From: an uncultured Actinomycetes bacterium | Lineage (GTDB): Bacteria > Actinomycetota > Thermoleophilia > UBA2241 | Length of the DNA stretch: 64,000 nucleotides | Assembly: GCA_963709345.1 (NCBI GenBank) | Contig: CAVPVX010000007.1 | Span: 608,001 to 672,000, forward strand | Direction: 5' to 3' | In this document: in pieces, positions 27,081-46,564 of the stretch | Numbering within the stretch: the stretch's first letter is position 1 | How the letters are laid out: each line of letters opens with the position of its first letter | Notes under the pieces: model-generated | What the model saw: only the letters and a program-made list of their open reading frames with translations | Told to the model about the DNA's origin: nothing | Database searches by the model: none | Translations under genes and position numbers: made by a program

Positions 27081-27098
27081 CAGTGAAACTGTTCACAG
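27081..27098. promoter_or_regulatory. Rex operator upstream of the response regulator-hydCBA operon
   Basis: CAGTGAA-ACTG-TTCACAG versus the Rex consensus TTGTGAA-N4-TTCACAA. Confidence 0.75.
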
Positions 27099-27143
27099 TC
27101 GCCTCGAAAAAAACGCCTTCCTTCTCGCCCGCGCCCGCCCGAG

Positions 27144-27899
27144 TCATGACCGAATCCCCTGCCCCGCCGGCCGGACCGGCGCGGCCTCGGAGTCGGCGCC
27201 CCCCCGAACGCCGGCCACTTCGTCGCCGGCGACCGGGCCGTGCACCAGAAACGAGAGCAACTCGAGCTTGGATGCGATATCCGTGTGTTCTACGTAGCAG
27301 CCCTCGGGCGGCGTGACCCGCTTGGGCACGAAGTTCAGGATCGCGCGCGCGCCGGCCGCGGCGACTCGGTCGACCAACGCCTGGAGACCTTCCGGCCGGG
27401 TGGCGACGACCGCCATGTGGATGTCGAGCTCGCGCAGGACGGTCTCGAGATGGTCGACGTGATAGCAGCGCCGGCCGGCGTACATGCGGCCGACCTTCTC
27501 GGCGTCGACGTCGAAGGCGGCGGCGATATGGAAGCCGCGCTCCTCGAAGCCGCGGTAGGAGAGCAGGGCGCGTCCGAGATCACCGACCCCGAAGAGCGCG
27601 ATGGACTGGGTCTCGTCGGTGCCCATGATGCGGCTGATCGTGCGGCTCATCTGGAAGACGTTGTAGCCGCGGGAGATGTGCCCGAAGGTCCCGAAGGAGG
27701 CGAGGTCACGGCGAAGCTGCGCCGGCGTGACGCCGACGAGCTCGGCAAGCTGCTGGGAGTGGATGTCCTCGACACCGTCAGTGTGGAGCTCCTCCAACAC
27801 CTTCCGATAGACGCTGAGACGCTCGACCGTCTGCAGGGAAACCCGCTTCTCCGGGCGATGCAACTGCTTCGGTGCGGTGCCGCCGGTCTGTTCGCTCAT
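27144..27899 (-). CDS. rex: Redox-sensing transcriptional repressor Rex
   Basis: TVERLSVY, QLRRDLASFG..GYNV, Rossmann GVGDLGRAL and ILNFVP motifs. Confidence 0.95.
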   Translation of the reverse strand: MSEQTGGTAPKQLHRPEKRVSLQTVERLSVYRKVLEELHTDGVEDIHSQQLAELVGVTPAQLRRDLASFGTFGHISRGYNVFQMSRTISRIMGTDETQSIALFGVGDLGRALLSYRGFEERGFHIAAAFDVDAEKVGRMYAGRRCYHVDHLETVLRELDIHMAVVATRPEGLQALVDRVAAAGARAILNFVPKRVTPPEGCYVEHTDIASKLELLSFLVHGPVAGDEVAGVRGGADSEAAPVRPAGQGIRS

Positions 27900-27926
27900 G
27901 CTCAACGGTCCTCCCACGTCTCCTCC

Positions 27927-27962
27927 AGCTGTGACTCTATTCACAGCTCTACGCGCTGTCAA
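27927..27962 (-). promoter_or_regulatory. rex promoter (TTGACA-17-TAGAGT) with a Rex operator over the -10
   Basis: -35 at 27962-27957 and -10 at 27939-27934; palindrome AGCTGTGA-ctctat-TCACAGCT at 27927-27948. Confidence 0.82.
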
Positions 27963-28031
27963 GCGCCTCTGGGGAATCCGCTGGGCAGTCGGGCGCCGGC
28001 GAAGCGAGTGGCGCGCGGAGGGGCTGGTCCG

Positions 28032-28916
28032 CTAGCGGCCGAGAGCCGCCGCCAGAGCGGCGATGGACTCCGGCGGCGTGCCACAGCAACCGCCGACGAT
28101 GCCGGCGCCCAAAGCGGGGTAGCCGGAGACGATCGCGGCGAAGTGCTCGGGGGTTTCCCGGTAGACCGTCTCCCCACCCTCCAGCCGTGGCTGACCGGCA
28201 TTCGGCTGGGCGCAGGTGACGCCGCCGTTGAGCTCGGCGAGCACCGGCACGAGCGCCGTCATCGGCTCGGCGGTGATCTCGCAGTTGCAGCCGACGACGG
28301 CGGCGCCCGCGTCCTTGAGCTCGCGCACAGCCGCCGCGGGGTCGACGCCCATCATGGTGCGAAAGCCCTGGGCGGCCGGCTTGAAGGCCATGCTGGCCAG
28401 AACCGGACGGCCGGCCGCGGCGGCCACCGCCTCCTGGACGGCGATGCGCGCCTCCGTGAGGTCGAACATGGTCTCGACGTTCAGCAGGTCGACACCGCCG
28501 GCGACGAGGGCTTCCGCCTGCTCGGCGAACGTGGCGCGCAGCGCCTCCGGGTCGGCGGCGCCCATCGGCTTGAGCATGTGCCCGCACGGCCCGATGTCGC
28601 CGGCGACGTAGCGGCCCGGGAACTCCCGGTCGCGGACGCCGGTGGCGAGACGCGCGCCGGCTTCGTTGAGCTCCACGGCGCGGGCGGAGAGGCCGTGCGC
28701 CTCGAGACGCATGCCAGTACCGCCGAAGGTGTTGGTATTCACGATGTCGGAGCCGGCGGCGAAGAAACCGCGGTGGATGTCGGCGACCTCGTCGGGGTGC
28801 GAGACGTTCCACTCCTCGGGGCACTCGCCGGCGGCGAAGCCGCGCTCCATGAGCGCGCGCCCGAGGCCACCGTCCAGCAGCAGCGGTCGCTCGGCGATCA
28901 GTGCGAAGAGGTCCAT
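28032..28916 (-). CDS. Homocysteine S-methyltransferase family protein (stand-alone MetH Hcy-binding domain)
   Basis: LLDGG, TNTFG, ETMFD, GCNC, PNAG and GGCCGT motifs (Zn ligands). Confidence 0.9.
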   Translation of the reverse strand: MDLFALIAERPLLLDGGLGRALMERGFAAGECPEEWNVSHPDEVADIHRGFFAAGSDIVNTNTFGGTGMRLEAHGLSARAVELNEAGARLATGVRDREFPGRYVAGDIGPCGHMLKPMGAADPEALRATFAEQAEALVAGGVDLLNVETMFDLTEARIAVQEAVAAAAGRPVLASMAFKPAAQGFRTMMGVDPAAAVRELKDAGAAVVGCNCEITAEPMTALVPVLAELNGGVTCAQPNAGQPRLEGGETVYRETPEHFAAIVSGYPALGAGIVGGCCGTPPESIAALAAALGR

Positions 28917-28962
28917 GCCCGGCAGTCTACCAGACCGGGGGCCGTGGCTCAGGGGCGCGGCC

Positions 28963-29823
28963 TCAAGAGCGCGCCGCCACCTCGCGCGTGAGGCGCTCGG
29001 CCTCGCGGCGCGGCAGGCCGAGGCAGACGTGCAGGGCCGCGGCGGCGTCCCGGCGCGACAAGCCGCGGCCGAGCAGGGTCTCCGCCGCGGCCACCGCGGC
29101 GGGGCGGCGGGCGACGTCCGGGTCGAGTGGCGCTCCGACGTCGATCACCAGGGTGATCTCGCCGCGCACGGCCGCCGTCGGGCCGGCGTCGGGCCCAGGC
29201 ACAGGGTTGCGCTCGCTCAGGTCGAGCAGCGAGCCCCGCACGACCTGCTCGTGCACTTTCGTGAGCTCCCTGCAGATGGCGGCGCGCCCCTCCGGCAGCG
29301 CCGCCGCCAGCACGGCCAGGCTGCGCGCGAGCCGCCGGCCGGTCTCGAACGCGATCACGAGGCCGCCGGAGCGGCGCCACTCGGTGAAGGCGACCTCGAG
29401 CTCGCGCGCGCGGCGCGGAAGATAGCCGACGAAGCGAAAGCCGTCGCCGCCGATGCCGGCGGCGACGAGCGCCGTGAGCACCGCCGACGGCCCCGGAAGC
29501 ACCGTCATCTCCAGGTCTTCAGCAACGACGCGCTCGATGAGGCGCATGCCGGGATCCTGCACGCCGGGCATCCCGGCGTCGGTGACGAGCGCGACCGTGG
29601 ATCCGCCTCGCAGCAGGCGGAGGACCGCGTCGGTCTTCTGCAGTTCGTTGTGCTGGAAGAAGCTGGTAAGCGGGGTGTGGATGGCGAAGTGGCTGAGCAG
29701 CTTCCGCGTCCGCCGCGTGTCTTCGGCGGCGACCAGCTCGGCGTCGCGCAGCGCCTCGAGGACGCGCGGCGACACGTCCCCGAGATTGCCGATGGGGGTG
29801 GCGCATACGTAGAGCATGGTCAT
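28963..29823 (-). CDS. rsmI: 16S rRNA C1402 2'-O-methyltransferase
   Basis: LYVCATPIGNL, AAEDTR, DAGMPGVQDPG and RELTKVHE motifs. Confidence 0.95.
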   Translation of the reverse strand: MTMLYVCATPIGNLGDVSPRVLEALRDAELVAAEDTRRTRKLLSHFAIHTPLTSFFQHNELQKTDAVLRLLRGGSTVALVTDAGMPGVQDPGMRLIERVVAEDLEMTVLPGPSAVLTALVAAGIGGDGFRFVGYLPRRARELEVAFTEWRRSGGLVIAFETGRRLARSLAVLAAALPEGRAAICRELTKVHEQVVRGSLLDLSERNPVPGPDAGPTAAVRGEITLVIDVGAPLDPDVARRPAAVAAAETLLGRGLSRRDAAAALHVCLGLPRREAERLTREVAARS

Positions 29824-30341
29824 CCCTCCCGCAGAAAGCGTTCGATGAAGAGGACGTCGACCTCGCGGCCGCCGACCCGCGCGTGGCGCCGCGCGGTGCC
29901 GACGACCATGAAGCCGAGCGCAAGGTGATACGCGAGCGAGTCGAGGTTGTCGGCGCGCAGGTCGGTGAACACCTTGTCGTAGCCGAGGTCGAGGGCGGCG
30001 GCGAAGGAGGCTCGCGCCAGCGCCGCCCCCACGCCCCGGCGACGGTGAGCAGCGTCGACGTACGTGCCCATGGTCGAGACGTGGTCGAACTCGTGGGTCA
30101 CGAACGTGTTCCACGGGATCACCGTCTGGACGCCGACGACCCCGGCCGCGGGGTCCGTGGCGACGTGCATGAACGCGCGCTCGGGAAGTGCCTCGATGTA
30201 GGCGCGCTCCTCGGCGACGGTGAACGGCGTATCGAGCAGGCTGTGGCGGCCGCCGAGGATGATCGCGTTCAGCACGGCGCCGACTCCGGCGGCGTCGTCC
30301 GGGCCGGCGCGCCTGATCGAGATCCCGGCCGCGGAGCTCAC
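29820..30341 (-). CDS. GNAT family N-acetyltransferase
   Basis: YVDAAHRRRGVG acetyl-CoA motif; N..SLAYH..LGF. Confidence 0.85.
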   Translation of the reverse strand: MSSAAGISIRRAGPDDAAGVGAVLNAIILGGRHSLLDTPFTVAEERAYIEALPERAFMHVATDPAAGVVGVQTVIPWNTFVTHEFDHVSTMGTYVDAAHRRRGVGAALARASFAAALDLGYDKVFTDLRADNLDSLAYHLALGFMVVGTARRHARVGGREVDVLFIERFLREG

Positions 30342-32188: not shown

Positions 32189-32446
<258 letters not shown>

Positions 32447-32486
32447 TCAAGACGACGAGGAGCCCGGGCCGGGAACCCGGCACCGG

Positions 32487-33522
32487 TCACGTCGTGGAAT
32501 GAGGACCCGGCGACCGTCCGTCGCCCGGGAAGAGCTCCGTGAGCGCCAGCGCGGCGGCGCCGATGAAGCCGGCATCGGCGCCCAGCGCGGCCGGGACGAT
32601 GCGCACGCGGTCGCGCGCCGGAGGCAGGCCGCGGGCGGCGAGGACGCGCCGGGCGGGAGCCAGCAGGAGCTCGCCCGCCGCCGCCGCGCCGCCGCCGATG
32701 ACGACCAGCTCGGGGTCGAAGATGTTGACCAGCGTCACGAGTCCCGCGCCCAGATACTCGCCGGCGCGCTCGACGAGAGCGGCGGCGCCGGCGTCGCCGC
32801 CCAGCGCCAGTTCCGTGAGCAGGCGGCTGTCGACCGCGCTCGCCGGCGGCCAGGGCGCGGCCCAGCGCCGAGTCCGGGTGGGCGCGGGCATGCGCCGCAG
32901 CCGCCGCGCCCATCGCGGTACCGGAAGCGTACGCCTCGAGACACCCCCTGCCGGGACACCCGCCCGGGCAGTCGGGGCCGTCGATGTCCAGGATGATGTG
33001 GCCGAGCTCCGCGGCCGCACCGCTCGCGCCGCGGTACGGACGGCCCCGGCAGATGATGCCGCCGCCGACGCCGGTCCCAAGGGTGAGCATGAGCATCTCG
33101 CTCGTCCCCGCACCGGCGCCGAAGACGTGCTCCCCGACCGTAGCCGCCGTGGCGTCGTTGTCGAGAGCGACGGGCAGCCCGGTGTGGGCGCGCAGGATGT
33201 CGCGCAACGGCACGTCGGCGAGCGGCAGGTTGACCGACTCGATGACGGCGCCGGCGTCGAAGTCGACCATGGAGGCCACCCCGACGCCGATCGCGTCGGC
33301 GTCGCCCGCCGCTGCGAGCCGGTCGACGCAGGCGAGAATGCCGGCCAGACACTCCGCCGACGAAGACTGGCTCGTCGGCGCCACGAACCGTTCGCCCACG
33401 AGCGGCGTCTCCAGCCCGGGAGACGGATGCGCGCCGCGAGCGGGCAGACTCCCGCGCACGAGCGCTCCGGCGACCTTGGTGCCGCCGATGTCGACGCCGA
33501 TGATCGTGTGCTCCGGGCCCAT
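32487..33522 (-). CDS. ROK family sugar kinase (glucokinase-like), frameshift near 32838
   Basis: GVDIGGTK, DNDA, TLGTGVGGG, ELGH and CPGGC..GCLE motifs; the C-terminus DPELVVIGGG..AGFIGAA is in the adjacent frame. Confidence 0.88.
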
Positions 33523-33665
33523 GACGACCCGCAGCTTACCATGGTGTAGACTCGGCACCAGAGGAAGCGCCCGCTCTCGGGCGTGATCAGCTGAAACGCC
33601 GGCGCCCCGCCCCCCGCGACCACCAACGCACCAGGCGTTGCCTCGCGCGCGCGAGGCGCACTCGC

Positions 33666-34856
33666 ATGACGAGACAGGACGACAGAGAAGGGCCGAAGGC
33701 CTACCGGACGTACAAGGCGCGCCGCACCCGGCGCAGCCACGTCGACGACGAGCTCGCCGGAGCACGCCGCGCGCGCGAGCCTCGCCCTCGCAGCCACGAG
33801 GCGAAGGTCGGCCGAGCCTCCGCCGACTACCCGGAGCGCAGCGACAAGGCGTACCACACCTACGGGCCCGCCCCGTCCGGGGGCAAGGGCGGCGGCAAGA
33901 AGAGCAGGCACGGAGGAGGCGGCCGACCGGCCAGACGGCGGCGGCGCTTCCGCTGGTGGTACGTACCCGTGGGCGTCTTCGCGGCCCTGGCGATCGCCGG
34001 CGTCGTCCTCACCGTCCTCGCCTGGCCCGGCTACCAGACCTTCGACCGCGCCGTCGACAAGTCCAACAAGCGCCTCGACAAGAAGACCAAGGCGCGGCTC
34101 GACCCCGACGCCGGCTGGATCTGGCGCAACGGGACCACACTGCTGCTGCTGGGCGTCGACAGCAAGGCGGGTGAGCCCGCCCGCTCGGACACGATCATGC
34201 TGATGCGCTTCAACCCGAAGACTCGCACGATCAACCAGCTCTCCATCCCGCGCGACACGAAGGTCGAGATCCCCGGCCGCGGCACCGGCAAGATCAACAC
34301 CGCGATGTTCTGGGGCGGCCCGTCACTCGCCCTCCAGACCGTGCAGGAGTTCACCGGCATCCCCATCAACCACGTGATGGTCGTCGACTTCAAGGGCTTC
34401 CCCCGCCTCGTCAACGCGGTGGGCGGCGTCGACATGAGGATCCCGAAGACGGTCACGACGACCGCCGGCAGCAACGCCCGGACGGTCGTCTTCAAGAAGG
34501 GCATGCACCACTTCGACGGCAAGTACGCGATGCTCTACGTACGCATCCGTTACGCCGACGACGACTTCCACCGCGCCTCCCGCCAGCAGGCGTTCATCCA
34601 GGCGCTCCAGAAGAAGATCGCGCAGCCGTCAAACGTCACCCGGCTTCCCGAGATCGGCAAGCGGTTCATGAGCGGCGTCGCCACAGATCTGACGACCAAC
34701 CAGATCCTCGAGCTCGCCTACCTCAAGTGGCGCTCCGGCGACGGCAAGAAGATGGTCATGACCGGCACTCCCGGCTGGGAAGGCGGAGTCTCATACGTCT
34801 TCCCGCCCGACGAGGCCACCCGCACCCGCCAGCTCGAGCGCTTCCTCGGCGACTGA
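33666..34856 (+). CDS. LytR-CpsA-Psr (LCP) family phosphotransferase
   Basis: Transmembrane helix; LLLGVDS, RSDTIML, SIPRDT and RIR..DDFHR..RQQ motifs. Confidence 0.92.
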   Translation: MTRQDDREGPKAYRTYKARRTRRSHVDDELAGARRAREPRPRSHEAKVGRASADYPERSDKAYHTYGPAPSGGKGGGKKSRHGGGGRPARRRRRFRWWYVPVGVFAALAIAGVVLTVLAWPGYQTFDRAVDKSNKRLDKKTKARLDPDAGWIWRNGTTLLLLGVDSKAGEPARSDTIMLMRFNPKTRTINQLSIPRDTKVEIPGRGTGKINTAMFWGGPSLALQTVQEFTGIPINHVMVVDFKGFPRLVNAVGGVDMRIPKTVTTTAGSNARTVVFKKGMHHFDGKYAMLYVRIRYADDDFHRASRQQAFIQALQKKIAQPSNVTRLPEIGKRFMSGVATDLTTNQILELAYLKWRSGDGKKMVMTGTPGWEGGVSYVFPPDEATRTRQLERFLGD

Positions 34857-35691: not shown

Positions 35692-36474
35692 CTATACGAG
35701 GAGCCCCACGGCGATGACCGCCGCAGTGAGGGCCAGAAGGACGGCGTCGGCCACTCCGGCGCGCAGCGGGTGCAGCCTCGTCCGGACGATCCCCGGCCGG
35801 TAGCAGCGCGCCTCCATGGCCAGCGCCAGCTCGTCCGCGCGGCGAAAGCTGAGCACGAACAGCGGGACGAGCACGGGCACAAGAGCGCGGGCGCGCCTGC
35901 CGATGCCGCCGCTGCGAAAGTCGGCGCCACGGGCGCGCTGGGCACGCATGATCTGGTCGAGTTCGACGAGCAACGTCGGGATGAAGCGCAGGGCGATCGT
36001 GACCATGAGCGCCAGTTCGTCGGTCGGCACGCGCAGGCGACGGAGCGGCCTGCCCAGCCAGGCGAGACCGTCGGTGAGCGCGATCGGCGGCGTCGTGAGG
36101 GTGAGCACGGAGCCGATCAGGACGAGGACGATGAGCCGTAGACTGAGGAAGGCCGCGAGGTCGAGACCGGCCCACGAGAGCTCAAAGATCCAGAAGCTGA
36201 AGAAGGGCACCCCGGGAGCGAAGAGCACCTGGGCGAGAAAGGTGAAGCCGACCAGCCACAGGAGCGGCCGCACGGCGCGCCAGAACCAGGCCGCAGGGAC
36301 ACCGCTGAGCGCGAAGGCAGCCGCGCCGGCGCCGGCGAACACGAGCAGCCCCGCGTAGGAGTCGCGCACGAACAGCGCCACCGCGAGCACGCTGACGGCG
36401 ACGAACTTGGTGCGAGGGTCGAGACGGTGGATCGGCGACGTGCCCGGGTAGTATTGGGCGATGGTCGCCTTCAC
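35692..36474 (-). CDS. ecfT: ECF transporter transmembrane component T
   Basis: HRLDPRTK, ALRFIP, AQRARG and AMEARCY motifs. Confidence 0.93.
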   Translation of the reverse strand: MKATIAQYYPGTSPIHRLDPRTKFVAVSVLAVALFVRDSYAGLLVFAGAGAAAFALSGVPAAWFWRAVRPLLWLVGFTFLAQVLFAPGVPFFSFWIFELSWAGLDLAAFLSLRLIVLVLIGSVLTLTTPPIALTDGLAWLGRPLRRLRVPTDELALMVTIALRFIPTLLVELDQIMRAQRARGADFRSGGIGRRARALVPVLVPLFVLSFRRADELALAMEARCYRPGIVRTRLHPLRAGVADAVLLALTAAVIAVGLLV

Positions 36475-37337: not shown

Positions 37338-38188
37338 GACGGCCCCTGCAGAGCGCCGACGAGATCGTCCAGCGTCAGCGGCAACGGGCCGTCGAGACGG
37401 CGCCCGCGGCCGGCGAGCTCGAGCGCGACCTCACCGGCCGCGGGCAGCCCGAGACCCAGACGCCGCACCAGAGCGCCGTCGCCGAAGAGACCGGCGGCGG
37501 CGCCCGCGTACACGACAGACCCGCGTTCGAGCGCCAGCGCGCGGTCGGCGCCGGGCACCTCGTCCATCTCCTGCGTGACGAAGACGATCGCGAGGCCGCC
37601 GTCCCGCAGCGCCGCGACGGCCTCGAGCACCTCTTCGCGGCCCGCCGGGTCGAGCATCGCCGTCGGCTCGTCCAGCACCAGCACCTTCCGCGGCACGGCC
37701 AGGACGCCCGCCAGCGCCGTGCGCTGCTTCTGGCCGCCGGAGAGCAGGTGCGGCTCGCGGCGGCGCAGGTCGCCCAGCCCGAACCTCTCAAGCATCTCGT
37801 CGACCCGGGCCCGCATGTCGGCCGGCGGCCAGCCGAGGTTCTCGAGGCCGAAGGCTATGTCGTCCTCCACGCAGTCGGCGACCAGCTGGTTCTCGGGATT
37901 CTGGAAAAGGACGCCCACGTCTCGCCGCGCCCCGAACCTGCCATCCTCGCTCAGCAGGTCGTGCCCGACGGCGACGGCGCGACGCGCGAAGGCGGCCTTC
38001 TCGAGGCCGCCCAGGATACGCGCCAGCGTGGACTTGCCGGAGCCGTTGGCGCCCACGACGGCGAGTGTCCGCCCGGCCTCGACCACCAGGGAGAGGTCGG
38101 CGAGCGCGTCGGCGCGCGCGCCGGCGTACCGGTAGTGCAGACCGGCGATGTCGACGAGCGGAGGTGAGCTGGGCAGAGGCGGGATCAT
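37334..38188 (-). CDS. ecfA1: ECF transporter ATPase A1
   Basis: GANGSGKST, FQNPENQ, LSGGQKQR and DEPTAMLDP motifs. Confidence 0.92.
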   Translation of the reverse strand: MIPPLPSSPPLVDIAGLHYRYAGARADALADLSLVVEAGRTLAVVGANGSGKSTLARILGGLEKAAFARRAVAVGHDLLSEDGRFGARRDVGVLFQNPENQLVADCVEDDIAFGLENLGWPPADMRARVDEMLERFGLGDLRRREPHLLSGGQKQRTALAGVLAVPRKVLVLDEPTAMLDPAGREEVLEAVAALRDGGLAIVFVTQEMDEVPGADRALALERGSVVYAGAAAGLFGDGALVRRLGLGLPAAGEVALELAGRGRRLDGPLPLTLDDLVGALQGPS

Positions 38189-38381: not shown

Positions 38382-38582
38382 TCAGCCGAACCCGCTGCTG
38401 CGCTGCGGAGCGCCGCACGACGGATCCGAGAGGGCGCCGTTGCGGAAGAAGCTCGCGAGCGTCTGCCGCACATGCTGCGAGCGACACTCGGGACAGCGCT
38501 TCTGTTTGTCGCGTATCGCGACCCGCGTCAGAACCTCGAACGTGTGGCCGCAGTCCTTGCAGATGAGATCGATGTGCGCCAT
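38376..38582 (-). CDS. FmdB-family zinc-ribbon protein, probable C-terminal selenocysteine (GFG-U-G)
   Basis: CKDC..CPEC zinc ribbon; TTC GGC TGA GGC TGA followed by a SECIS-like hairpin. If the UGA is a stop, the gene ends at 38382. Confidence 0.8.
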
Positions 38583-38616
38583 GGGCGGTGCCTGCTCCTT
38601 GGGTGAGTCGGGGGCG

Positions 38617-39099
38617 TCAGATGAACAGGTTGACGTTGGCCTCGTCGGCCTTTCCGAGGTAGGCCGCCACGCCCTCGAACTCGATGTCGTCGATGAGCTC
38701 CTCCTTCGTGAAGCCCAGGATGTCCATCGAGAGCGTGCAAGCGACGAACTCCACGCCCATCTCGCGGGCGCTGTCGAAGAGCTCCTCGAGCGACATTCCG
38801 CCGGCGTCCTTTGTGGCCTTCCTCATCATGGGACTGCCGGCTCCGGCGAAGTTCATCTTGGAGAGTCCGAGCTTCTTCGTGCCCTTGGGCATCATCCGGC
38901 CGAACATCGACTGAAGCGTAGACTTCTTGGCCTCGGTCGGGACCTTCTCCGGCTTGCGGAGGATGTTCAGACCCCAGAAGGTGCAGAAGATCGTGACGTC
39001 GTCGCCCATAGCGGCGGCGCCGTTGGCGATGATGAGTGCCGCCATCACCTTGTCGAAGTCGCCACTGAACAGGATGATCGTCTTCTTGGTCGTGTCCAC
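38617..39099 (-). CDS. DsrE/DrsE_2-family sulfur-relay protein
   Basis: FSGDFDK, IIANGAAAMG, FCTFWGL and ACTLSMD (conserved Cys) motifs. Confidence 0.9.
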   Translation of the reverse strand: MDTTKKTIILFSGDFDKVMAALIIANGAAAMGDDVTIFCTFWGLNILRKPEKVPTEAKKSTLQSMFGRMMPKGTKKLGLSKMNFAGAGSPMMRKATKDAGGMSLEELFDSAREMGVEFVACTLSMDILGFTKEELIDDIEFEGVAAYLGKADEANVNLFI

Positions 39100-39163
39100 T
39101 CCAGCACCTCCAGTGCTGTCCGTTTGTTGCCTTTCGAGACCGGGGGCCTGCGCGGGCCCTGCC

Positions 39164-40150
39164 TCAGGAGGCGGATGCCTCGCGCAGGTACTCGGAGATA
39201 TCCTTGAACCGCATGGTGTCGCCGGCGGCGGTACTCAGGTTGACGAAGCACATGGGGCACATCGTGACGCACTCGGGCGCGGCGGCTCGCAGCTGCTCGA
39301 CGCGCTTCTGCGCGTTGGCGGCCGCCTTCTGCGGGTAGAGTGACTCGACGGGGCCGCCGCAGCACCAGGTCTGGCGACCCGCGTACTCCGGGTCGAGGAC
39401 GGTGACGCCGGCGGCCGCAAGCAGCTCGCGCGGCTCGTCGACGACGCCCTCGTAGCGGGCGAAGACGCAGGAGTCGTGCAGCACGACTTCAGCGGGGGAG
39501 ATGCCGGCGCGTTTGCCGCCGCTTCCGTTGCCGCCGAAGTCCCTCTCCGCCAGCACCTCGAGGTAGCTCTTCACCTCGACGTCGTACCCCTTGAGGATCT
39601 TGGGATACACGGTGCGAAGCATCGTCGTGGTGTGCGGGTCGACGGTGATCACGGTCTTCACGGCGTGCTTCTTGAACACCGCGTGGACCTTCTTGGCGTG
39701 CTCGACGACGACCTCGTCGAGCCCGAGATCGTAGGCCAGGGCGCCCGAGTACAGGTCGTCCTCGTAGAGAGCGCCGAACTCGACGCCGGCGTCGCGGAGC
39801 AGATGCACGACATTGATCGGCACCTGATCGTAGCGGGCGCGCTCCTTCGCCGAGGGGCGCGCCATGAACGCCGAGATGTTGACGAACCGGTTCACCTTTC
39901 GACCGAGGCCGGTGTACTTGGCCAGCCATGAGTCGCCGAACTTCACCTCGGCCTTGACGAGGCCTTCGATGTACGGGATGAGCTGGTACATCATCCCCGT
40001 GTAGAGCACGGTCGCGCCGCCGCGCGGGAGGCCGAGGCCCTCGGTCCACTTGGTCGCCACCTTGGGGGACAGCGGCAGCACCGACTTGCGCAGGCGCAGG
40101 TTGTCGCCGAGGATGCCGATCACGTCGCCGGTCGGGAGAGGCATCGTCAT
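39164..40150 (-). CDS. CCG-domain Fe-S protein (HdrB/HdrD-like) with only the C-terminal CCG intact
   Basis: HDSC..WCCGG..MCPMC; the first repeat is degenerate (YTGM, DLYSG, VDPHT). Confidence 0.85.
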   Translation of the reverse strand: MTMPLPTGDVIGILGDNLRLRKSVLPLSPKVATKWTEGLGLPRGGATVLYTGMMYQLIPYIEGLVKAEVKFGDSWLAKYTGLGRKVNRFVNISAFMARPSAKERARYDQVPINVVHLLRDAGVEFGALYEDDLYSGALAYDLGLDEVVVEHAKKVHAVFKKHAVKTVITVDPHTTTMLRTVYPKILKGYDVEVKSYLEVLAERDFGGNGSGGKRAGISPAEVVLHDSCVFARYEGVVDEPRELLAAAGVTVLDPEYAGRQTWCCGGPVESLYPQKAAANAQKRVEQLRAAAPECVTMCPMCFVNLSTAAGDTMRFKDISEYLREASAS

Positions 40151-40461
40151 CCCTCCCCGTGGCCGAACGTCGTACGGACGATGTGATGCCGGAGCGTGCG
40201 CACGTTCTCGGCGATGTGTACGCCGGACGGGCAGTTCTCCTCGCACATCTTGCACAGCAGACAGGAGAAGACGCTCTCCGTCTCCTCCCGAACCTTGTCC
40301 TCCATGCCGAGAAGCACGTGGCGGAACAGCTTGCGCACCTCGACGTCGACACCCATCGGGCAGATGGCGGAGCACACCCCGCAGTTCATGCAGGCGTCGG
40401 CGTTGAACTCATCAGAGCACGCCAGTTCCGTCGCCAGCCCGGGGTTCACGAGAGCAGTCAT
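40147..40461 (-). CDS. HdrC-like 2x[4Fe-4S] protein
   Basis: CMNCGVCSAICP and CLLCKMCEENCP. Confidence 0.88.
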   Translation of the reverse strand: MTALVNPGLATELACSDEFNADACMNCGVCSAICPMGVDVEVRKLFRHVLLGMEDKVREETESVFSCLLCKMCEENCPSGVHIAENVRTLRHHIVRTTFGHGEG

Positions 40462-40751
40462 TTGCCCTCCCTCTCCACCACTTGATAGCGGTAGTAGCCG
40501 TCGTCGGTGACTTCTTTGATCTCGGCGAGCCAGCCGTACTTGCGCAGGCCCATGACCCAGAACATCACCTCATGGGTCGGGCGCTCGACGGCGGCCGCGA
40601 TCTCGGGCACCGTGAGCGGTCCGTCTTCAAGCGCTGCGAGGATGCGGCGGCGCATGACCTGCTCGTCGCGGACGACCTCACGGACGTCGCGTTGTCCTGG
40701 AGCGGCGTCCCGGATCACGGGTCGCCGGCCTGACCCGGTGGTCTGCGTCAT
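40458..40751 (-). CDS. Small winged-helix protein within the hdr operon
   Basis: ILAALEDGPLTVPEIA...GLRKYG...YYRY; overlaps both neighbours. Confidence 0.8.
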   Translation of the reverse strand: MTQTTGSGRRPVIRDAAPGQRDVREVVRDEQVMRRRILAALEDGPLTVPEIAAAVERPTHEVMFWVMGLRKYGWLAEIKEVTDDGYYRYQVVEREGK

Positions 40752-42487
40752 GAGCAGCTCACCTCCATCATGCCGTCGATCATCGATCTGATCTGGGCGT
40801 CGGTGTAGCCCTGCAGGTCGGTCGCGTCCACGGGGCAGACGGGCACGCAGCCGCCGCAGCCCTTGCACGCCGTCTTGATGACCTGCGCCACCTGTTTGCC
40901 GTCCATCTCGACCTGCTCGATGGCGTCGTAGGGACACGCCTCAAGACACTTGCCGCACCAGGTGCAGGCGGCGGTGTCGACGATGGCGACCATCGGGTCG
41001 AGCTCGGCGTAACCGCGCTTGAGCATGGCGCCACTGTGCGTGACGGCGGCGAGGCCGCTGGCGACCGCCTCGGCCGAGTTCTTCGGCGACTGGCAGGAGC
41101 CACAGATGGTGACGCCGTCCACGATGGTCTCCACCGGGCGCAGCTTGGGGTGGATCTCGTTGTAGAAGCCGTCGTTGCCGACCGGCAGCTTGAGTACGCT
41201 GACGAGCTCGCCGTTCTCGCGCGGTACCATGCCGGTGACGAGCACGACGAGGTCGGCGGGTATGGCGACTTCTTCGCCCCCGGTGAGCAGGTCCTTCGTG
41301 GTGACCTTGAGACCGCCGGACGGGAGCTTCTCCACCTCCGGCGGTTCGTCGTCCGGCATGCGCAGATACAGCGAGCCCTTCTCACGCGACTCGTTCCAGA
41401 GCAGCTCGTACTTGCCGTAGGTGCGGATGTCGCGGTAGAGGTGGTACTGGCGCAGTCCGGCGAGGCCCTTCTCGGCCGCCTTGAGCGCAGCGTGCACGGC
41501 GGCTGTGCAGCAGTAGCGCGAGCAGTAGGTGTGAGCGCCTTCGACGCTCTCGTCCTGGCGACTGCCGACGCAGTAGATGTAGGCGATGGTCTTGACGGGC
41601 CGGCCGTTGTACTCGAGCGAACCGGCCGCTTCATCCACCATCTTCTTGAACTCCGGCAGAGTGACGACACCGTCCAGGCCGTAGCCGAACTCGCCGGCCG
41701 CCGGCTCGTAGGTGTCCGCGCCGGTGGCGACGATGATCGAGCCCACGTCGACCTGGACGGTCTCGAGCTGCTCGCCGTGGATGGCGATCGTCACCTGGTT
41801 GTTGCCGAAGCTGCCGCTCTTGGCCATCAGCTCGGCGTTCGTGTACACGGTGATCGCCGGATGAGCGCGCACCTTCTCTTCGAGGGTCGCGATCAGCTCG
41901 GCGCCCTTGCGCTCGTTCGGGTACATCTCGGCGAATCCGGCGACGCGGCCGCCGAGCTGCGGCTCCTTCTCGACGAGGAATACGCCGAGGCCGATCTCGG
42001 CCAAGCCGAGGGCGGCGCGCAGGCCGGCCACCCCGCCGCCCACCACAAGGCTTCTCGGCGTCGTCTCGACGACGATCGGCTCGAGCGGCTCGGTGAGGCG
42101 CGTCCGGTTGATTCCGGCGCGGACGAGCCGCACCGCCTTCTCGGTCGCGCCCGTATGGTCGTCGGTGTGCGTCCACGAGCACTGCTCGCGGACGTTGACC
42201 TGCGTGTACTGGAACGGGTTCATGCCGGCGCGCTTGGCCACGTCACGGAAGGTGACCGTGTGCAGCTTGGGCGAGCACGAGGCGACGACGAGCGCGTCGA
42301 GGCCCTGCTCCTCCGCGTCCTGCACGATCTCCTGCTGGGTCGCGTCGGAACAGGTGAACATGGCGGAGCGGGCGACGACGACGTCGTCGTCTCCCTTGAT
42401 CTCCTCGACGACCTTGTCGACGTCGACGTAGTCGCCGATGTTGCCGCCGCACTGACAGACGTACACGCCGATCTTGCGGCCGCTCAT
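40748..42487 (-). CDS. hdrA: Heterodisulfide reductase subunit A-like flavoprotein
   Basis: IGVYVCQCGGNI, ASCSP, NVREQCSW, GGGVAG, CVGSR, CSRYCC and HPKLRP motifs; C-terminal 2x[4Fe-4S]. Confidence 0.92.
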   Translation of the reverse strand: MSGRKIGVYVCQCGGNIGDYVDVDKVVEEIKGDDDVVVARSAMFTCSDATQQEIVQDAEEQGLDALVVASCSPKLHTVTFRDVAKRAGMNPFQYTQVNVREQCSWTHTDDHTGATEKAVRLVRAGINRTRLTEPLEPIVVETTPRSLVVGGGVAGLRAALGLAEIGLGVFLVEKEPQLGGRVAGFAEMYPNERKGAELIATLEEKVRAHPAITVYTNAELMAKSGSFGNNQVTIAIHGEQLETVQVDVGSIIVATGADTYEPAAGEFGYGLDGVVTLPEFKKMVDEAAGSLEYNGRPVKTIAYIYCVGSRQDESVEGAHTYCSRYCCTAAVHAALKAAEKGLAGLRQYHLYRDIRTYGKYELLWNESREKGSLYLRMPDDEPPEVEKLPSGGLKVTTKDLLTGGEEVAIPADLVVLVTGMVPRENGELVSVLKLPVGNDGFYNEIHPKLRPVETIVDGVTICGSCQSPKNSAEAVASGLAAVTHSGAMLKRGYAELDPMVAIVDTAACTWCGKCLEACPYDAIEQVEMDGKQVAQVIKTACKGCGGCVPVCPVDATDLQGYTDAQIRSMIDGMMEVSCS

Positions 42488-45255
42488 GCCTTCACCTTCA
42501 CTTTCGACTCTTCCGCGACTTTCGCTCTCTCCAGATGAGCAGCGGCCTGTGCGACCGCGGCGCCCGCGTGGAGAATGGAGTCGGGGATGTCCTTGGCCCC
42601 GGCGGCCGCGCCCGCGACGAACACGCCGGGGAGGTTGGTGCGGCCGGGGTCCATGTCTTCGTCGGCTTCGCCGACGTAGTAGTAGTCGTCGAGCGCCAGG
42701 GCCTCGCCGGCGCCGTCGAAAAGCTCGGCGACGCCGCGACCGGGCTGGACGCCGACCGCGAGCACGACCATGTCGTGCTCCGTCTCGACGAGCGCGCTGC
42801 CGTTCTCGATGTCCTCGTAGCGGAGCGTGAGGTTGCCTTCGTCGGTCTCGGTGATACCCGAGACGCGGCCCTTCACGAAGTTGGCGCCCATGTCTTTGGC
42901 CTGCTCGTAGAACTCGTCGTACCCCTTGCCCACGGAGCGTACGTCGATGTAGTAGACGGTGACGTCGGCGAGCGGCAGGGCGCCCATGATGAGCTGGTTC
43001 TGCTTGACCGAGTACATGCAGCAGATCTTGGAGCACAGCGGGTTGTCCACGGTGTCGTCGCGGGACCCGGTGCACAGGATGTAGGCGATGTTGTCCGGCA
43101 CCTTGCCGTCGCTGGGGCGAAGCACGGCGTTGTACGGCCGGGTCGGCGCCAGCAGGCGGTCCATCTGCATGCCGGTGACGACGTTCTTGTAGCGGCCGAA
43201 TCCGTACTGCGGCTTCGCGTCGGCCGGGAAGAGGTTGAAGCCCGTGGCCAGGACCACGCTGCCGAACTCCGCCTCGATCTCCTTCTCGCGCATGCTGAAG
43301 TCGATGCAGTCGGCGGGGCAGATGTCCACGCACGCGTGGCACTCGGAGCAGACACCGCAGTCGAGGCAGCGGCTCGCGCTGTGCAGCGCCTCTTCCTCGG
43401 TCATCGTCTGCTCGTCCTCGTAGAACTCGCCCGGCGCAAGTGTCACGGTCTCCCGCGGGTTGAGAGGCTCGATGCGGCTGTACGTCGCCTGCCGCCTCAG
43501 AACGGCCTCCTTGTCCACCATCGGCAGAGGGCCGTCGAATGCCGCGGGATCCAGCTCCAGGCCCTGGAGGAAGCGGTCGATCATGAAGGCCGCCCGCCAG
43601 CCCTGGCCGGCGGCGGAAGTGATCATCGAGGGGCCGGAGACGACGTCGCCGGCGGCAAACACGCGAGGCACGCTGGTCTGCAGGGTGCCCGGATCCGCCT
43701 TGATCGTCCCGGTGCTGTTGATGGGGAGACCGAAGGCGCCCGCGTCGGGTCTCATGCCCGCGGCGACGACCACGAGGTCGCACTCAAGGCTTCCGAGGGT
43801 CTCGTCCTCATACTGCGGGCTGAAGCTGCCCTCCTCGTCGAACACCGAGACGCAACGCAGGAGCTCGACGCTGCGCACGGCGTCGCCGCCGCTGAACTGA
43901 CGCACCCCGCACGAGTTCTGGAAGGCGACGCCCTCCTGGCGAGCCTCCTCGACCTCCCAGGCATGCGCGGGCATCTGCTCGTGGGCTTCGAGGCTCGCCA
44001 CCTGTACCGATGCGGCCTTCAGCCGCAGCGCGGTGCGCGCCGCATCGAGGGCGACGTTGCCGCCTCCGACCACAACGACACGCTTGCCCTCGACGTCCAG
44101 CTCTTCGCCAAGCTTGGCGGCGCGGAGGAAGTCGGCGGAGCGCATGACGCCGCGAAGATCCTCGCCGGGCACGCCGAGCTTCGTGCCGAGGTGCGTACCC
44201 ACAGCCACGAGCACGGCGTCGTAGCCTGCCTCCTTCAACTCGTCCAGATCCTCGACGCGCGAGTCCGTCTCTATCACCACGCCGGCCGCCGTCACATTCG
44301 CGAGGTCCTGGTCGACGACTTCGTTCGGGAGGCGGTACGGCGGGAGCGCCAGACGCAGCAGACCACCCGGCTGAGACGCGGCTTCGAAGACCTTCACCCC
44401 GTAGCCCTTGCGGGCCAGATGCCAGGCCGCGGTCACACCGGCCGGGCCGGAGCCGATCACCGCCACCTTCTTACCGTTGGGATCCGCGATCTTGACGCTC
44501 GTCTCGCCCTTGGCGTAGTGAGTGTCTGCGATGAAGCGCTTGAGGCGGCGGATGGAGAGGGATCCCTCCAGATCGCCCCGCATGCACTCAGCCTCGCACG
44601 GGGCGTAGCACGCCCGGCCGAGGCTGCCGACCAGCGGCGTCGCCTCGCAGACAAGGTCGAACGCCTTCTCGTACTCGCCGCTGCGTATGAGCGCGACATA
44701 GCCGTGCGCCTTGATGCCCGCAGGGCACTCGTAGCTGCACGGCGAGACGCCCTCGCGGCTGATCACGGCCTTCTTCGGCACCGCCTGGGGGAAGGCGATG
44801 TACGCCGCCCGCCGCGACACCATGTCGGCGTTGAACTCGTCGGGGACGGCGACGCTGCAGGCCATCTCGCACTGGCGACAGCCGGTGCAGGCGACCTCGT
44901 CGACGTATTTCGGCTTCTGCAGGATCCGGGCGTGATAGGTGCCGTCGCCGTTGGCGCGGATGCCCTCGACCTCGGCGTACGTGAGTACGTCGATGTTGGG
45001 GTGGTGGATGGTCGCGGCCATCTTGGGGGTGGAGATGCAGCTGGCGCAGTCGAGCGTCGGGAACACCTTGCTGAGCAGGATCATCTTGCCGCCGACGCTG
45101 GCGTCCTTCTCGACGACGAGGACCTTGTAGCCCATGTCGCCGAGCTTGAGCGCCGACTCCATACCGCCGATGCCGCTGCCGACCACCAGAGCGTCGTACT
45201 TGAGCGCTGCACCTTCGGCGCCCCGCTCGATAGCTTCGCTTCGTTGGCTGTTCAT
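42484..45255 (-). CDS. HdrL-like protein: HdrA with an inserted GltD-type NAD(P)H oxidoreductase module
   Basis: GSGIGG, FPTLDCASC and an inserted ferredoxin; CPAG, GRACYAPCE, GSGPAG, GGGNVALD and RCLDC; then CTGSR and CSKICCMYSVK. Confidence 0.9.
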   Translation of the reverse strand: MNSQRSEAIERGAEGAALKYDALVVGSGIGGMESALKLGDMGYKVLVVEKDASVGGKMILLSKVFPTLDCASCISTPKMAATIHHPNIDVLTYAEVEGIRANGDGTYHARILQKPKYVDEVACTGCRQCEMACSVAVPDEFNADMVSRRAAYIAFPQAVPKKAVISREGVSPCSYECPAGIKAHGYVALIRSGEYEKAFDLVCEATPLVGSLGRACYAPCEAECMRGDLEGSLSIRRLKRFIADTHYAKGETSVKIADPNGKKVAVIGSGPAGVTAAWHLARKGYGVKVFEAASQPGGLLRLALPPYRLPNEVVDQDLANVTAAGVVIETDSRVEDLDELKEAGYDAVLVAVGTHLGTKLGVPGEDLRGVMRSADFLRAAKLGEELDVEGKRVVVVGGGNVALDAARTALRLKAASVQVASLEAHEQMPAHAWEVEEARQEGVAFQNSCGVRQFSGGDAVRSVELLRCVSVFDEEGSFSPQYEDETLGSLECDLVVVAAGMRPDAGAFGLPINSTGTIKADPGTLQTSVPRVFAAGDVVSGPSMITSAAGQGWRAAFMIDRFLQGLELDPAAFDGPLPMVDKEAVLRRQATYSRIEPLNPRETVTLAPGEFYEDEQTMTEEEALHSASRCLDCGVCSECHACVDICPADCIDFSMREKEIEAEFGSVVLATGFNLFPADAKPQYGFGRYKNVVTGMQMDRLLAPTRPYNAVLRPSDGKVPDNIAYILCTGSRDDTVDNPLCSKICCMYSVKQNQLIMGALPLADVTVYYIDVRSVGKGYDEFYEQAKDMGANFVKGRVSGITETDEGNLTLRYEDIENGSALVETEHDMVVLAVGVQPGRGVAELFDGAGEALALDDYYYVGEADEDMDPGRTNLPGVFVAGAAAGAKDIPDSILHAGAAVAQAAAHLERAKVAEESKVKVKA

Positions 45256-45692
45256 GCGGTCGCCTTCCGGGTCGTCGGTCCCAAGCCGGAGAGGGACTCC
45301 GAGTATTCGTGCATGTAGTTGGTGAAGGGCTCCGCGCAGACGGAACAGATCGCGGCCATGCGCACTCTCTGCGGCTCGTAGCCCCTCTCGACCAGCAGTG
45401 CCTGCGCGTCCATCATGATCTTGGCGGTGCGCTGGCTGCAGTCGGGCAGGAACGCGCACTCCTCGCCGTCGGCGGCGATGAAGACTCCGTCGAAACCCTG
45501 CTCCATGGCGTAGAGGATCCAGCTCGGCTTGATACCACTGGTGCACGGAACGCTGATCACCATGACCTTGGGCGAGTAGTGCATGTGCGAACTGCCGGCC
45601 AGGTCGATGCCCGGGTCGGAGATGTTGTTGGTGCTGAAGACCAGGATGCGCGGGGAATATGCCTGATCGTCGAGTGCGGCAGTCTCGGCCAT
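45252..45692 (-). CDS. MvhD/FlpD-like Fe-S subunit (atypical Cys pattern)
   Basis: ILVF....SDPGIDLAG, VPC, GFDGVF and RVRM motifs; N-terminal CxxC absent, C-terminal CSVC present. Confidence 0.85.
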   Translation of the reverse strand: MAETAALDDQAYSPRILVFSTNNISDPGIDLAGSSHMHYSPKVMVISVPCTSGIKPSWILYAMEQGFDGVFIAADGEECAFLPDCSQRTAKIMMDAQALLVERGYEPQRVRMAAICSVCAEPFTNYMHEYSESLSGLGPTTRKATA

Positions 45693-45694
45693 CG

Positions 45695-45946
45695 TCACTT
45701 CATCTTCTTCACGAAGAGGCGCATGAAGCCCGGCTCCTCGACCACGCCCAGATACTCGTGACCCATCTTCTTGGACCACGCCGGGAGGTCCTTGGTCGTG
45801 CCGCTGTCGGTCGCCTGGACCTCCATCACGCCGCCTACGGAGACGCTGGGAATGCCCTTCTTGGCGGCCAGGATGGGACCAGGGCACGAGGTGCCTCGCG
45901 CGTCGACGACTTTCTCTACCTGGATGTTGGCGAGGTCTTCGGACAT
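45695..45946 (-). CDS. tusA: TusA/SirA family sulfur carrier
   Basis: VDARGTSCPGP (CPxP persulfide Cys) and D.G...DLPAW motifs. Confidence 0.92.
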   Translation of the reverse strand: MSEDLANIQVEKVVDARGTSCPGPILAAKKGIPSVSVGGVMEVQATDSGTTKDLPAWSKKMGHEYLGVVEEPGFMRLFVKKMK

Positions 45947-45990
45947 GATGGTCTCCTTCGTGCTTGCTAGACTGGATTCGACGCTTGTGC

Positions 45991-46008
45991 TTGTGATTTC
46001 TTTCTCAA
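45991..46008. promoter_or_regulatory. Rex-like operator upstream of tusA
   Basis: TTGTGAT-TTCT-TTCTCAA, two mismatches to TTGTGAA-N4-TTCACAA, in an AT-rich intergenic patch. Confidence 0.65.
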
Positions 46009-46083
46009 TCCAAGGGCCGGTGAGCCCCTCTTCAATGTGCTGACGGAGCGGTGTCCTGCCGCGTGGCCGGCGGCTTCGGTGTC

Positions 46084-46512
46084 TCACACCTGAGGCGCCA
46101 CCGGCGCATCCGGCGCCCCAGTCCCATCCGGCCGGGCACGCGCGGCATCGAGGAACTCGGCGACCTGCAGCGATTCACCCTGTGCGACGTGCTGCTCCAC
46201 CAGCGCCTCGCGGATGAGGGCGCACGCCTCCATGAATTTGCGGTTCGTGACGCGGTAGTACACGGTCTGAGCCTCTTTGCGCGACGCCACGAGCCGGCGC
46301 TCTTTGAGCACGCGCAGGTGCTGCGAGACGTTGTGGACCGAGATACCGACCTCCTCGGCGAGGTCGCCCACGCACTTCTCCTCGTCGCAGATGGCGTGCA
46401 GGATCGCCTGACGATGCTCGTTCGCGAGAGCCCGACAGAGGTCTGCATGCATCCGAAAGAGCGGCTTGAGATCCGGCGCGGCGGGCGTGTCACTGTCGTT
46501 GCATACTTGCAT
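46084..46512 (-). CDS. ArsR/SmtB family transcriptional regulator
   Basis: ALANEHR..IL, CVGDLA, VSQHLRVL and VYYR motifs; Cys residues in several helices. Confidence 0.92.
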   Translation of the reverse strand: MQVCNDSDTPAAPDLKPLFRMHADLCRALANEHRQAILHAICDEEKCVGDLAEEVGISVHNVSQHLRVLKERRLVASRKEAQTVYYRVTNRKFMEACALIREALVEQHVAQGESLQVAEFLDAARARPDGTGAPDAPVAPQV

Positions 46513-46516
46513 ACTT

Positions 46517-46564
46517 ACATATATACGCTATAGATGTCGCGCCGTCAAGTGCAGTCATTCACAA
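46517..46564 (-). promoter_or_regulatory. arsR promoter (TTGACG-17-TATATA) with an ArsR-type inverted repeat and a Rex-like box
   Basis: ACATATATA-cgc-TATAGATGT at 46517-46537; minus strand TTGTGAA-TGAC-TGCACTT at 46564-46547 overlaps the -35. Confidence 0.65.

Follow-up and report, generated by a model that had tools for sequence, protein, structure and literature searches.

Does a single NADH-sensing repressor of the Rex family control both the [FeFe]-hydrogenase island and the Hdr/TusA/DsrE2 sulfur cluster of the DNA presented above, or do the Rex-like boxes found at the two islands answer to different regulators? This stretch, called the window below, is 64 kb long and covers positions 608001-672000 of contig C7 of an uncultured Thermoleophilia (Actinomycetota) genome (G000; 3.11 Mb in 11 contigs). 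A first-pass annotation had recognized four 18-bp boxes, two at each island, and had joined them into one Rex regulon, in which hydrogen evolution and the Hdr/sulfur route would serve as alternative electron sinks induced together at high NADH/NAD+. Based on a comparison with related genomes, we find that boxes 1 and 2, at the hydrogenase island, are very probably operators of Rex1, the Rex protein encoded in the window; that boxes 3 and 4, at the sulfur cluster, are not chance matches; and that the genome encodes three Rex paralogs and uses two operator dialects. The proposed single regulon is better read as two or three regulons of different Rex paralogs.

The four boxes and the number expected by chance

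All four boxes are present at the positions originally given for them, and each falls between called genes:

27081..27098, box 1: CAGTGAA-ACTG-TTCACAG, past the rex1 stop codon and ahead of the response-regulator gene, the first of the hydrogenase operon
27929..27946, box 2: CTGTGAC-TCTA-TTCACAG, with the rex1 −10 hexamer in its centre
45991..46008, box 3: TTGTGAT-TTCT-TTCTCAA, in the arsR-tusA spacer, 44 nucleotides (nt) upstream of the tusA start codon
46547..46564, box 4: AAGTGCA-GTCA-TTCACAA, abutting the −35-like hexamer of arsR with a 2-nt overlap

Searching for TTGTGAANNNNTTCACAA with up to three mismatches returned exactly these four matches in the window, where 0.27 were expected and none of 100 shuffles reached four. 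Across the whole of G000, to which all genome-wide box and matrix scans reported here refer, the same search found 23 matches, 16 in called intergenic DNA (16% of the genome) and 7 in coding DNA; genes were called genome-wide with a rough codon-usage caller made for this work, and the intergenic and coding labels are approximate. When each intergenic segment was shuffled with its dinucleotides kept, 2.5 ± 1.5 matches were obtained (maximum of 6 in 40 shuffles), so such boxes are not equally common in random intergenic DNA. For the four spacers taken individually, the chance of a match ranges from 0.0002 (box 4) to 0.0016 (box 3).

Compared to the general Rex consensus TTGTGAA-N4-TTCACAA, box 3 has two mismatches and boxes 1, 2 and 4 have three each. 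Those of box 1 all lie outside GTGAA...TTCAC, two of those of box 2 are in outer positions and one is at position 7 (GTGAC), and box 3 has a mismatch in the core, with TCTC for TCAC. The promoter context of box 2 is as first described: TTGACA-17-TAGAGT (27962..27934, minus strand) was called in a promoter scan, and its −10 falls within box 2. Box 4, placed earlier at the arsR −35, is nearly there, in that it abuts TTGACG (46548..46543) and shares 2 nt with it, in a promoter read by eye.

Boxes 1 and 2 as probable operators of Rex1

When 40 relatives and the window's own genome were searched in full, no more than 11 of the relatives proved to encode a Rex1 ortholog (69-82% identity). Every locus examined retains both box 1 and box 2: 12 of 12 Rex1 loci of the genus and, in the species collection, 10 of 10 additional ones, two sets that may share genomes. 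The operators of the 12 genus loci follow the consensus C[TA]GTGA[AT]-N4-[AT]TCAC[TA]G, and their alignment shows box 2 centred on the −10 hexamer in all 12, with TAGAAT as the hexamer of most relatives. A matrix built from 22 sites of 11 relatives, with the window's genome left out, places boxes 1 and 2 at the top of the genome with 26.4 and 25.3 bits; the next-best site reaches 13.0 bits and lies in coding DNA, and the Rex1-type operator, which is sharply defined, occurs only twice in the genome. Because of this conservation, the matrix scores and the placement on the −10, we regard Rex1 as a probable local regulator with two operators, one on its own promoter and one at the head of the hydrogenase operon. 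The earlier designation of boxes 1 and 2 as Rex sites is upheld with high confidence.

The identity of Rex1 itself is clear from its matches to the NCBIfam Rex model (201.9 bits, with a cut-off of 126) and to Rex chains in the PDB (E = 2e-34, with GxGxxG and the FD motif aligned). The island runs in the order box 2, rex1, box 1, response regulator, hydC, hydB, hydA, HydS-like sensor/kinase, response regulator and hybrid kinase, with box 1 about 70 nt upstream of the response-regulator start; its genes are as follows:

27144..27899, minus strand: rex1, Rex paralog of 251 amino acids with winged helix and Rossmann domain (Pfam PF06971 and PF02629)
26587..27012, minus strand: receiver-only response regulator (Pfam Response_reg), the first gene after box 1
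26110-26583, minus strand: hydC, NuoE-like (Pfam)
24119-26113, minus strand: hydB, NuoF-like (Pfam)
22383-24113, minus strand: hydA, [FeFe] hydrogenase (Pfam)
20284-22371, minus strand: HydS-like sensory hydrogenase fused to a histidine kinase (Pfam Fe_hyd_lg_C, HisKA and HATPase_c)
19846-20280, minus strand: response regulator (Pfam)
18362-19816, minus strand: hybrid kinase (Pfam)

With hydCBA, the NCBIfam model for NADH-dependent [FeFe] hydrogenase group A6 gives 693.8 bits, slightly below its cut-off of 765. Relatives also have a third half-site, CTGTGAA, which follows box 1 in the order of transcription (27060-27081) and overlaps its end, so that their Rex1 boxes may be two that overlap; in the window this half-site is degenerate (CTGTGAG). 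Elsewhere in the window, a ROK-family gene (32413-33911) is broken in two by a frameshift or an assembly error, with Pfam ROK positions 2-191 in one reading frame and 195-293 in another that overlaps it.

Three Rex paralogs and a second operator dialect

The paralog search showed that Rex1 is one of three Rex proteins in G000, the others being Rex2 (C7:721906-722553; 40% identical to it) and Rex3 (35% identical). All three have the PF06971 winged helix, a Rossmann fold with GxGxxG and the acidic residue for the NADH ribose, and, in a three-way alignment, the invariant residues G104, G106, G109 and F129-D130; Rex1 and Rex3 score above the cut-off of the NCBIfam Rex model. Their recognition helices are alike (A-Q-x-R-[RK]-D), and the wings read GHISRGY in Rex1, GTRGVGY in Rex2 and GSPNKGY in Rex3, with that of Rex2 being the closest of the three to T-Rex.

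Upstream of the hemL-rex2 operon (hemL identified by TIGR00713, 591 bits) we found a palindrome of a second type, TTGTG-N8-CACA[AT], here called class B, which occurs in G000, in two other loci and, at the same position, in 13 of 18 further relatives. In 15 loci, the 1.5 kb to either side of rex2 hold no box that comes within four mismatches of the canonical 14-position consensus, and the box of the rex2 operon became visible only upstream of hemL, with the looser core TGTG-N8-CACA. Of 30 cydA loci, 25 have a box of the same class some 130 nt before the gene, as a rule TTGTGCC-N4-GGCACAA, with two cydA sites having a TTGCG half like the orthologs of box 3. Within G000, TTGTG-N8-CACAA with at most one mismatch has 13 intergenic and 4 coding matches, against the 3.7 ± 1.8 that shuffled sequences give. 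The 13 intergenic matches include box 3, with one mismatch; others precede hemL-rex2, cydAB, a second operon of response regulator, nuoE and nuoF, a 1,481-amino-acid HdrA/GltD paralog and a 4Fe-4S protein, and some precede genes without an obvious redox role.

To score class-B sites we used a second position weight matrix (PWM-B), derived from 37 sites of relatives (24 from cydA and 13 from hemL). It gives 19.8 bits for the hemL box of G000 (C7:723917) and 16.9 bits for the cydA box (C2:417720), and 9 of its 10 top hits in the genome are intergenic, with intergenic hits clearly dominating only above about 14 bits. Boxes 3 and 4 rank 21st and 24th among the intergenic hits. The Rex1 matrix gives them 10.1 and 7.6 bits, a range in which coding hits are equally common; the matrix scan of the genome thus singles out boxes 1 and 2 and leaves boxes 3 and 4 at noise level. 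The orthologs of box 3 have a median of 11.95 bits with PWM-B (maximum 13.3) and of 3.05 bits with the Rex1 matrix.

Several further loci of the genome deserve mention beside these dialects. A class-B box of 15.1 bits (C7:309023) precedes the second operon of response regulator, NuoE-like and NuoF-like genes (C7:309262-311343), and this operon may encode a further NADH-linked hydrogenase or dehydrogenase that is subject to control of the Rex type. Another Rex-like box (C7:493055) lies about 110 nt upstream of the gene for the 1,481-amino-acid fused HdrA-GltD-HdrA protein (C7:493165-497610), which is 39% identical to the 923-amino-acid subunit encoded in the window; this box is kept in 3 of 20 paralog loci. 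Rex3 (C7:294944-296058; 346 amino acids) carries a C-terminal extension of about 130 amino acids that has no Pfam match at E ≤ 1e-4. The gene after rex3 encodes a 522-amino-acid protein with an anti-sigma-type ATPase domain and a [FeFe]-hydrogenase-like Fe-S sensor, and the rex3 promoter, TTGACA-17-GAGAAT, leads directly into a Rex box that is kept in both Rex3 ortholog loci examined.

Boxes 3 and 4 in related genomes

ArsR orthologs (63-83% identity) are encoded in 32 of 53 genomes of the genus, and we compared 30 of these loci. Box 3 is found in 30 of 30 orthologous arsR-tusA loci as TTG[AC]GAA-N4-NNCACAA (in gene sense), followed by GCACAAG, and continues into a conserved CACAAGCACAAG direct repeat. 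Box 4 is conserved to a smaller extent: in about 16 of the 30 loci it abuts the −35 as TTGTGAA-N4-[TC]GCAC, with a fixed seven-base half-site and a variable 4-nt spacer, while the DNA upstream of it cannot be aligned among the loci. Because they are both statistically unexpected and conserved in evolution, boxes 3 and 4 are not chance matches.

Where a box is missing, the region in some cases holds another. In five loci without box 4, a replacement of class B that scores 12.0 to 17.3 bits stands some 120 nt ahead of arsR, and genome G050, which is without box 3, has a class-B box of 19.9 bits about 140 nt upstream of tusA. The occurrence of box 4 does not follow that of Rex1: it is present in genomes in which no Rex1-like match was found (G020, G005, G024, G014, G018 and G019) and missing from several that have Rex1 (G010, G016, G012, G015 and G002). 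The positions of the two boxes, box 4 over the edge of the arsR −35 and box 3 between arsR and tusA, would both fit repression. The cluster runs from rplQ (46739-47089) through box 4, arsR, box 3, tusA, the mvhD-like gene and hdrA/gltD to the Zn-ribbon gene, all on the minus strand:

46520..46548, minus strand: arsR promoter, read by eye, with −35 TTGACG (46548..46543), a 17-nt spacer and −10 TATATA (46525..46520)
46084..46512, minus strand: arsR, ArsR/SmtB family, 142 amino acids, with Cys42, Cys47 and Cys97 (Pfam HTH_5)
45695-45946, minus strand: tusA (Pfam/NCBIfam)
45252-45698, minus strand: mvhD-like gene (Pfam/NCBIfam)
42484-45255, minus strand: HdrA with an inserted GltD-like NAD(P)H module, 923 amino acids (Pfam/NCBIfam)
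40748-42487, minus strand: HdrA2-like protein (Pfam/NCBIfam)
40458-40718, minus strand: small open reading frame (gene call)
40147-40461, minus strand: HdrC-like protein (Pfam/NCBIfam)
39164-40144, minus strand: HdrB-like protein with CCG domain (Pfam/NCBIfam)
38617-39099, minus strand: DsrE2 (Pfam/NCBIfam)
38382-38582, minus strand: Zn-ribbon protein (Pfam/NCBIfam)

A promoter-like TTGAC-N17/18-TATATA is common to all 30 arsR loci. The consensus promoter scan called nothing in the arsR region because the second hexamer, TATATA, is without the final T. The arsR start codon (46512) lies 7 nt past the −10, and the arsR mRNA is therefore probably leaderless. After the −10, a near-invariant AAGCAAGTATGCAAAT runs into the ATG in 30 arsR loci (46495-46530 in the window); this stretch is the likeliest ArsR operator. 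The same start region also holds a tandem GCAAGTAT/GCAAATAC directly after the −10. The protein matches the NCBIfam HTH_metalloreg model (84.1 bits, with a cut-off of 55).

Three other roles considered for box 3 were rejected. An Rfam scan of 45850-46800 for known RNA elements gave only PYLIS_2 (17.6 bits, E = 0.28), well below its gathering score; the GCTTG/CAAGC flanks, which could form a hairpin, show no covariation by eye among the 30 orthologs; and in the loci read, no TANNNT-like −10 lies 16-18 nt downstream that would make the box a sigma-70 −35 for tusA.

As to the surroundings, the arsR-tusA-hdr-dsrE2 cluster (38382-46512) lies between rplQ and ecfA-ecfA'-ecfT-truA (35692-38188), whereas in most relatives arsR is divergent from another gene; the cluster therefore appears to have moved and to have retained its promoter boxes. 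A perfect GC-rich hairpin without a T-run follows rplQ (46665-46705; GGGGCGGGCGGCC...GGCCGCCCGCCCC) and probably marks the end of the ribosomal-protein operon transcript.

Which factor binds boxes 3 and 4?

The reading that we favor has two Rex paralogs with separate operator sets, with Rex1 acting on boxes 1 and 2 and Rex2 on boxes 3 and 4; from the sequences at hand we would give it an even chance, and the more general proposal that some Rex paralog binds boxes 3 and 4 appears equally balanced between true and false. The best argument for a shared factor is the turnover of boxes within the same regulatory regions, which points to one factor being recruited to the regions of boxes 3 and 4 time and again. 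Several observations weigh against this assignment. Class B is attributed to Rex2 by analogy with Streptomyces and by the logic of autoregulation; boxes 3 and 4 score 9.6 and 9.3 bits with PWM-B, which places them at ranks 56 and 73 in the genome with many coding hits above them; and box 4 is absent from about 14 of the 30 orthologous loci. None of the 30 orthologs of box 3 has, in its left half, the central T of TGTG that all the Rex dialects share, A or C standing in its place, and several loci place the box about 10 nt from the tusA Shine-Dalgarno sequence, that is, in the transcribed leader, some passing from the box directly into the Shine-Dalgarno sequence. Outside family f1 and genus g8, none of 13 orthologous clusters (11 from family f4 and 2 from f3) has a box of at least 10 bits within 1.5 kb upstream; in these f4 and f3 loci arsR mostly runs directly into tusA, and a box 3-like element is retained in only 2 of 15 loci of other families. 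Finally, a search of sequencing runs for the region 45200-46900 found no run with more than 0.19 of the sampled words, and all those returned were contigs.

Many of these points would equally follow if boxes 3 and 4 were functional sites of another kind, operators of ArsR or of a further factor, with boxes 1 and 2 remaining with Rex1 and with a resemblance to the Rex consensus that would be partial and a coincidence. We consider this possible, if less probable than an even chance: it would account for the twilight scores with both lineage-specific matrices, for a box 3 that lacks the central T and runs into the CACAAGCACAAG repeat, for its location inside the mRNA in some loci, and for the lack of such a box in most orthologous clusters of other families, and the terminal TT of box 4 would just be the start of the −35 TTGAC. 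What speaks against it is that the conserved 7-N4-7 layout with a variable spacer is the architecture of a Rex box, and that a switch to unrelated, stronger class-B boxes would be difficult to account for if it were not one and the same factor that is recruited. ArsR in particular already has a better operator candidate in AAGCAAGTATGCAAAT, at the arsR −10/+1, which is not repeated at box 3. A variant in which box 3 belongs to an A/C-rich, U-poor leader that tunes tusA translation is possible, and is set against a region without any Rfam family match and flanks without covariation.

The regulon as first proposed, in which the one Rex encoded in the window binds all four boxes and unites both islands, we regard as improbable. 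In its favor, all four boxes lie within two or three mismatches of the general consensus, the similar recognition helices make cross-binding possible, and Streptomyces Rex weakly binds sites with three mismatches, according to excerpts of PMC5355995. Yet a single Rex1 regulon over both islands is unlikely because of the noise-level Rex1 scores of boxes 3 and 4, below even the best coding hit and far from the 25 to 26 bits of boxes 1 and 2, and because box 4 and Rex1 do not co-occur; the wings of Rex1 and Rex2 differ as well. What survives of the one-regulon proposal is that boxes 3 and 4 are real, conserved elements; its single regulator is hard to reconcile with three paralogs and a box 4 that is independent of Rex1. 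Control by a CRP/FNR-family regulator, at boxes 3 and 4 and at class-B boxes generally, seems very unlikely to us. The core TGTGA-N6-TCACA is common to CRP sites, cydAB is CRP dependent in some mycobacteria, and box 4 is centred about −42.5 to −43.5 from the inferred transcription start, near the position of a class II activator. The genome does encode one true CRP/FNR-family protein (cNMP_binding and HTH_Crp_2), but the recognition helix of this sole member reads E-T-L-S-R, which we take to be of the FNR/FixK type (TTGAT-like half-sites) and not of the CRP type (R-E-x-x-x-R), and no CRP with a CRP-type recognition helix was found in the genome. Further, neither the A of TGTGA nor the T of TCACA is conserved in class-B boxes, the outer T...A of TTGTG...CACAA is conserved in them in a Rex-like manner, and one of these boxes precedes a rex operon. 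Least credible of all is a chance origin of boxes 3 and 4 in AT-richer spacers: the two spacers do have a slightly higher AT content than the genome as a whole, and the matrix scores are in the noise range, but the shuffle probabilities are 0.0016 and 0.0002, and the boxes are kept in 30 and about 16 orthologous loci while their flanks diverge.

A working model and its significance

If two Rex paralogs divide the boxes between them, the following picture would emerge. Rex1 would be a paralog dedicated to the hydrogenase island, binding box 2 on its own −10 and box 1; at low NADH/NAD+ it would repress rex1 and the operon of response regulator, hydCBA and hydS, and NADH would release it. Boxes 3 and 4 would most probably be weak operators of the canonical actinobacterial Rex, Rex2, encoded in the hemL-rex2 operon: a repressor on box 4 would get in the way of RNA polymerase at the arsR −35, and one on box 3 would keep transcription from running into tusA. 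A further signal, possibly sulfane sulfur, would reach the cluster through the ArsR-type repressor, and Rex2 and ArsR together might gate the NAD(P)H-linked Hdr/TusA/DsrE2 cluster. Since this cluster encodes a GltD-like module that binds NAD(P)H, redox control would be sensible for it. The sequences, their conservation, the three paralogs and the two dialects are what the analysis shows; which protein binds which box, the response to NADH, the physiology of the electron sinks and the joint induction of both islands put forward in the first-pass annotation are something we could only infer. More broadly, and quite tentatively, we speculate that NADH sensing in anaerobic Thermoleophilia may be split among three Rex proteins with distinct dialects, with Rex1 as a private switch of HydABC, Rex3 with its C-terminal extension paired with a HydS-like sensor, and the ancestral Rex2 acting on cydAB, hemL and, with a sulfane-sulfur-sensing ArsR, on the HdrA-GltD/MvhD/HdrBC-TusA-DsrE2 module, which would be expressed only when excess reductant and a sulfur acceptor are both at hand.

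For boxes 1 and 2, the control described here is of a known kind in a new lineage, the uncultured Thermoleophilia, and Rex acting on bifurcating hydrogenases is already a standard idea. What is new is a candidate regulon member, the Hdr/TusA/DsrE2 cluster, together with candidate paralog-specific operator dialects. Should these be confirmed, Rex paralogs of one genome may carry separable operator dialects, and consensus-based calls that pool look-alikes of TTGTGAA-N4-TTCACAA would merge different regulons. Confirmation would also suggest that redox state and an ArsR-type regulator jointly govern an Hdr/TusA/DsrE2 cluster that is NAD(P)H-linked and uncharacterised, which would offer a handle on the role of the cluster as a sink of reductant onto a sulfur carrier.

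Relation to known regulatory systems

The sulfur cluster resembles those governed by sHdrR/SoxR of Hyphomicrobium denitrificans, BigR and SqrR, in that an ArsR-family gene, probably self-repressing, heads a tusA/dsrE/hdr-like cluster, as far as the excerpts of PMC12423496 describe these systems; the same excerpts contain no operator sequence for sHdrR. Unlike the sHdrR systems, the Hdr proteins here form an NAD(P)H-linked HdrA-GltD/MvhD/HdrBC assembly and not a lipoate-dependent sHdr, and the ArsR of the window reaches only 45.8 bits with the BigR model, far below the cut-off of 155.

The hydrogenase island has its closest counterparts in Ruminococcus albus, Caldicellulosiruptor and the Hnd system of Solidesulfovibrio, in which rex likewise lies beside hydABC, a Rex box is found at the hydrogenase promoter and the locus contains a HydS-like sensor. 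Control of bifurcating [FeFe] hydrogenases by Rex and HydS has been proposed before, in passages of PMC10084766 and PMC6391272, with the Rex passages of the former concerning hnd and not hdr. In contrast to these Firmicutes and Desulfovibrionia, the host here is an uncultured member of the Thermoleophilia (Actinomycetota), its Rex1 is an extra paralog that is apparently limited to the hydrogenase locus, and its HydS is fused to a histidine kinase.

The Streptomyces systems are the closest to the second dialect. The founding targets of Streptomyces Rex are cydABCD and the rex-hem operon, and, according to the excerpts of PMC5355995, footprinting in S. avermitilis mapped among others operators that span the −35, single half-sites, a half-site reading TTGTGCA, and sites with three mismatches to which binding is weak. 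The Rex operators (ROP) of S. coelicolor and S. avermitilis (cydABCD, rex-hemACD, nuo and atp) share with those described here the 18-bp inverted repeat TTGTGAA-N4-TTCACAA and, in the same excerpts, their location over the −35, the −10 or the transcription start; an autoregulated rex linked to a heme-biosynthesis gene and cydAB as a target are further common features. Our literature searches linking Rex to TusA, DsrE or Hdr found, among the papers listed and the excerpts consulted, no report of such a cluster as a Rex target. Unlike Streptomyces, the present genome encodes three Rex paralogs, its Rex2-type dialect has GC-rich, variable inner positions (TTGTGCC...GGCACAA), its Rex1-type dialect has an outer C...G, and a TusA/Hdr/DsrE2 cluster is among the candidate targets.

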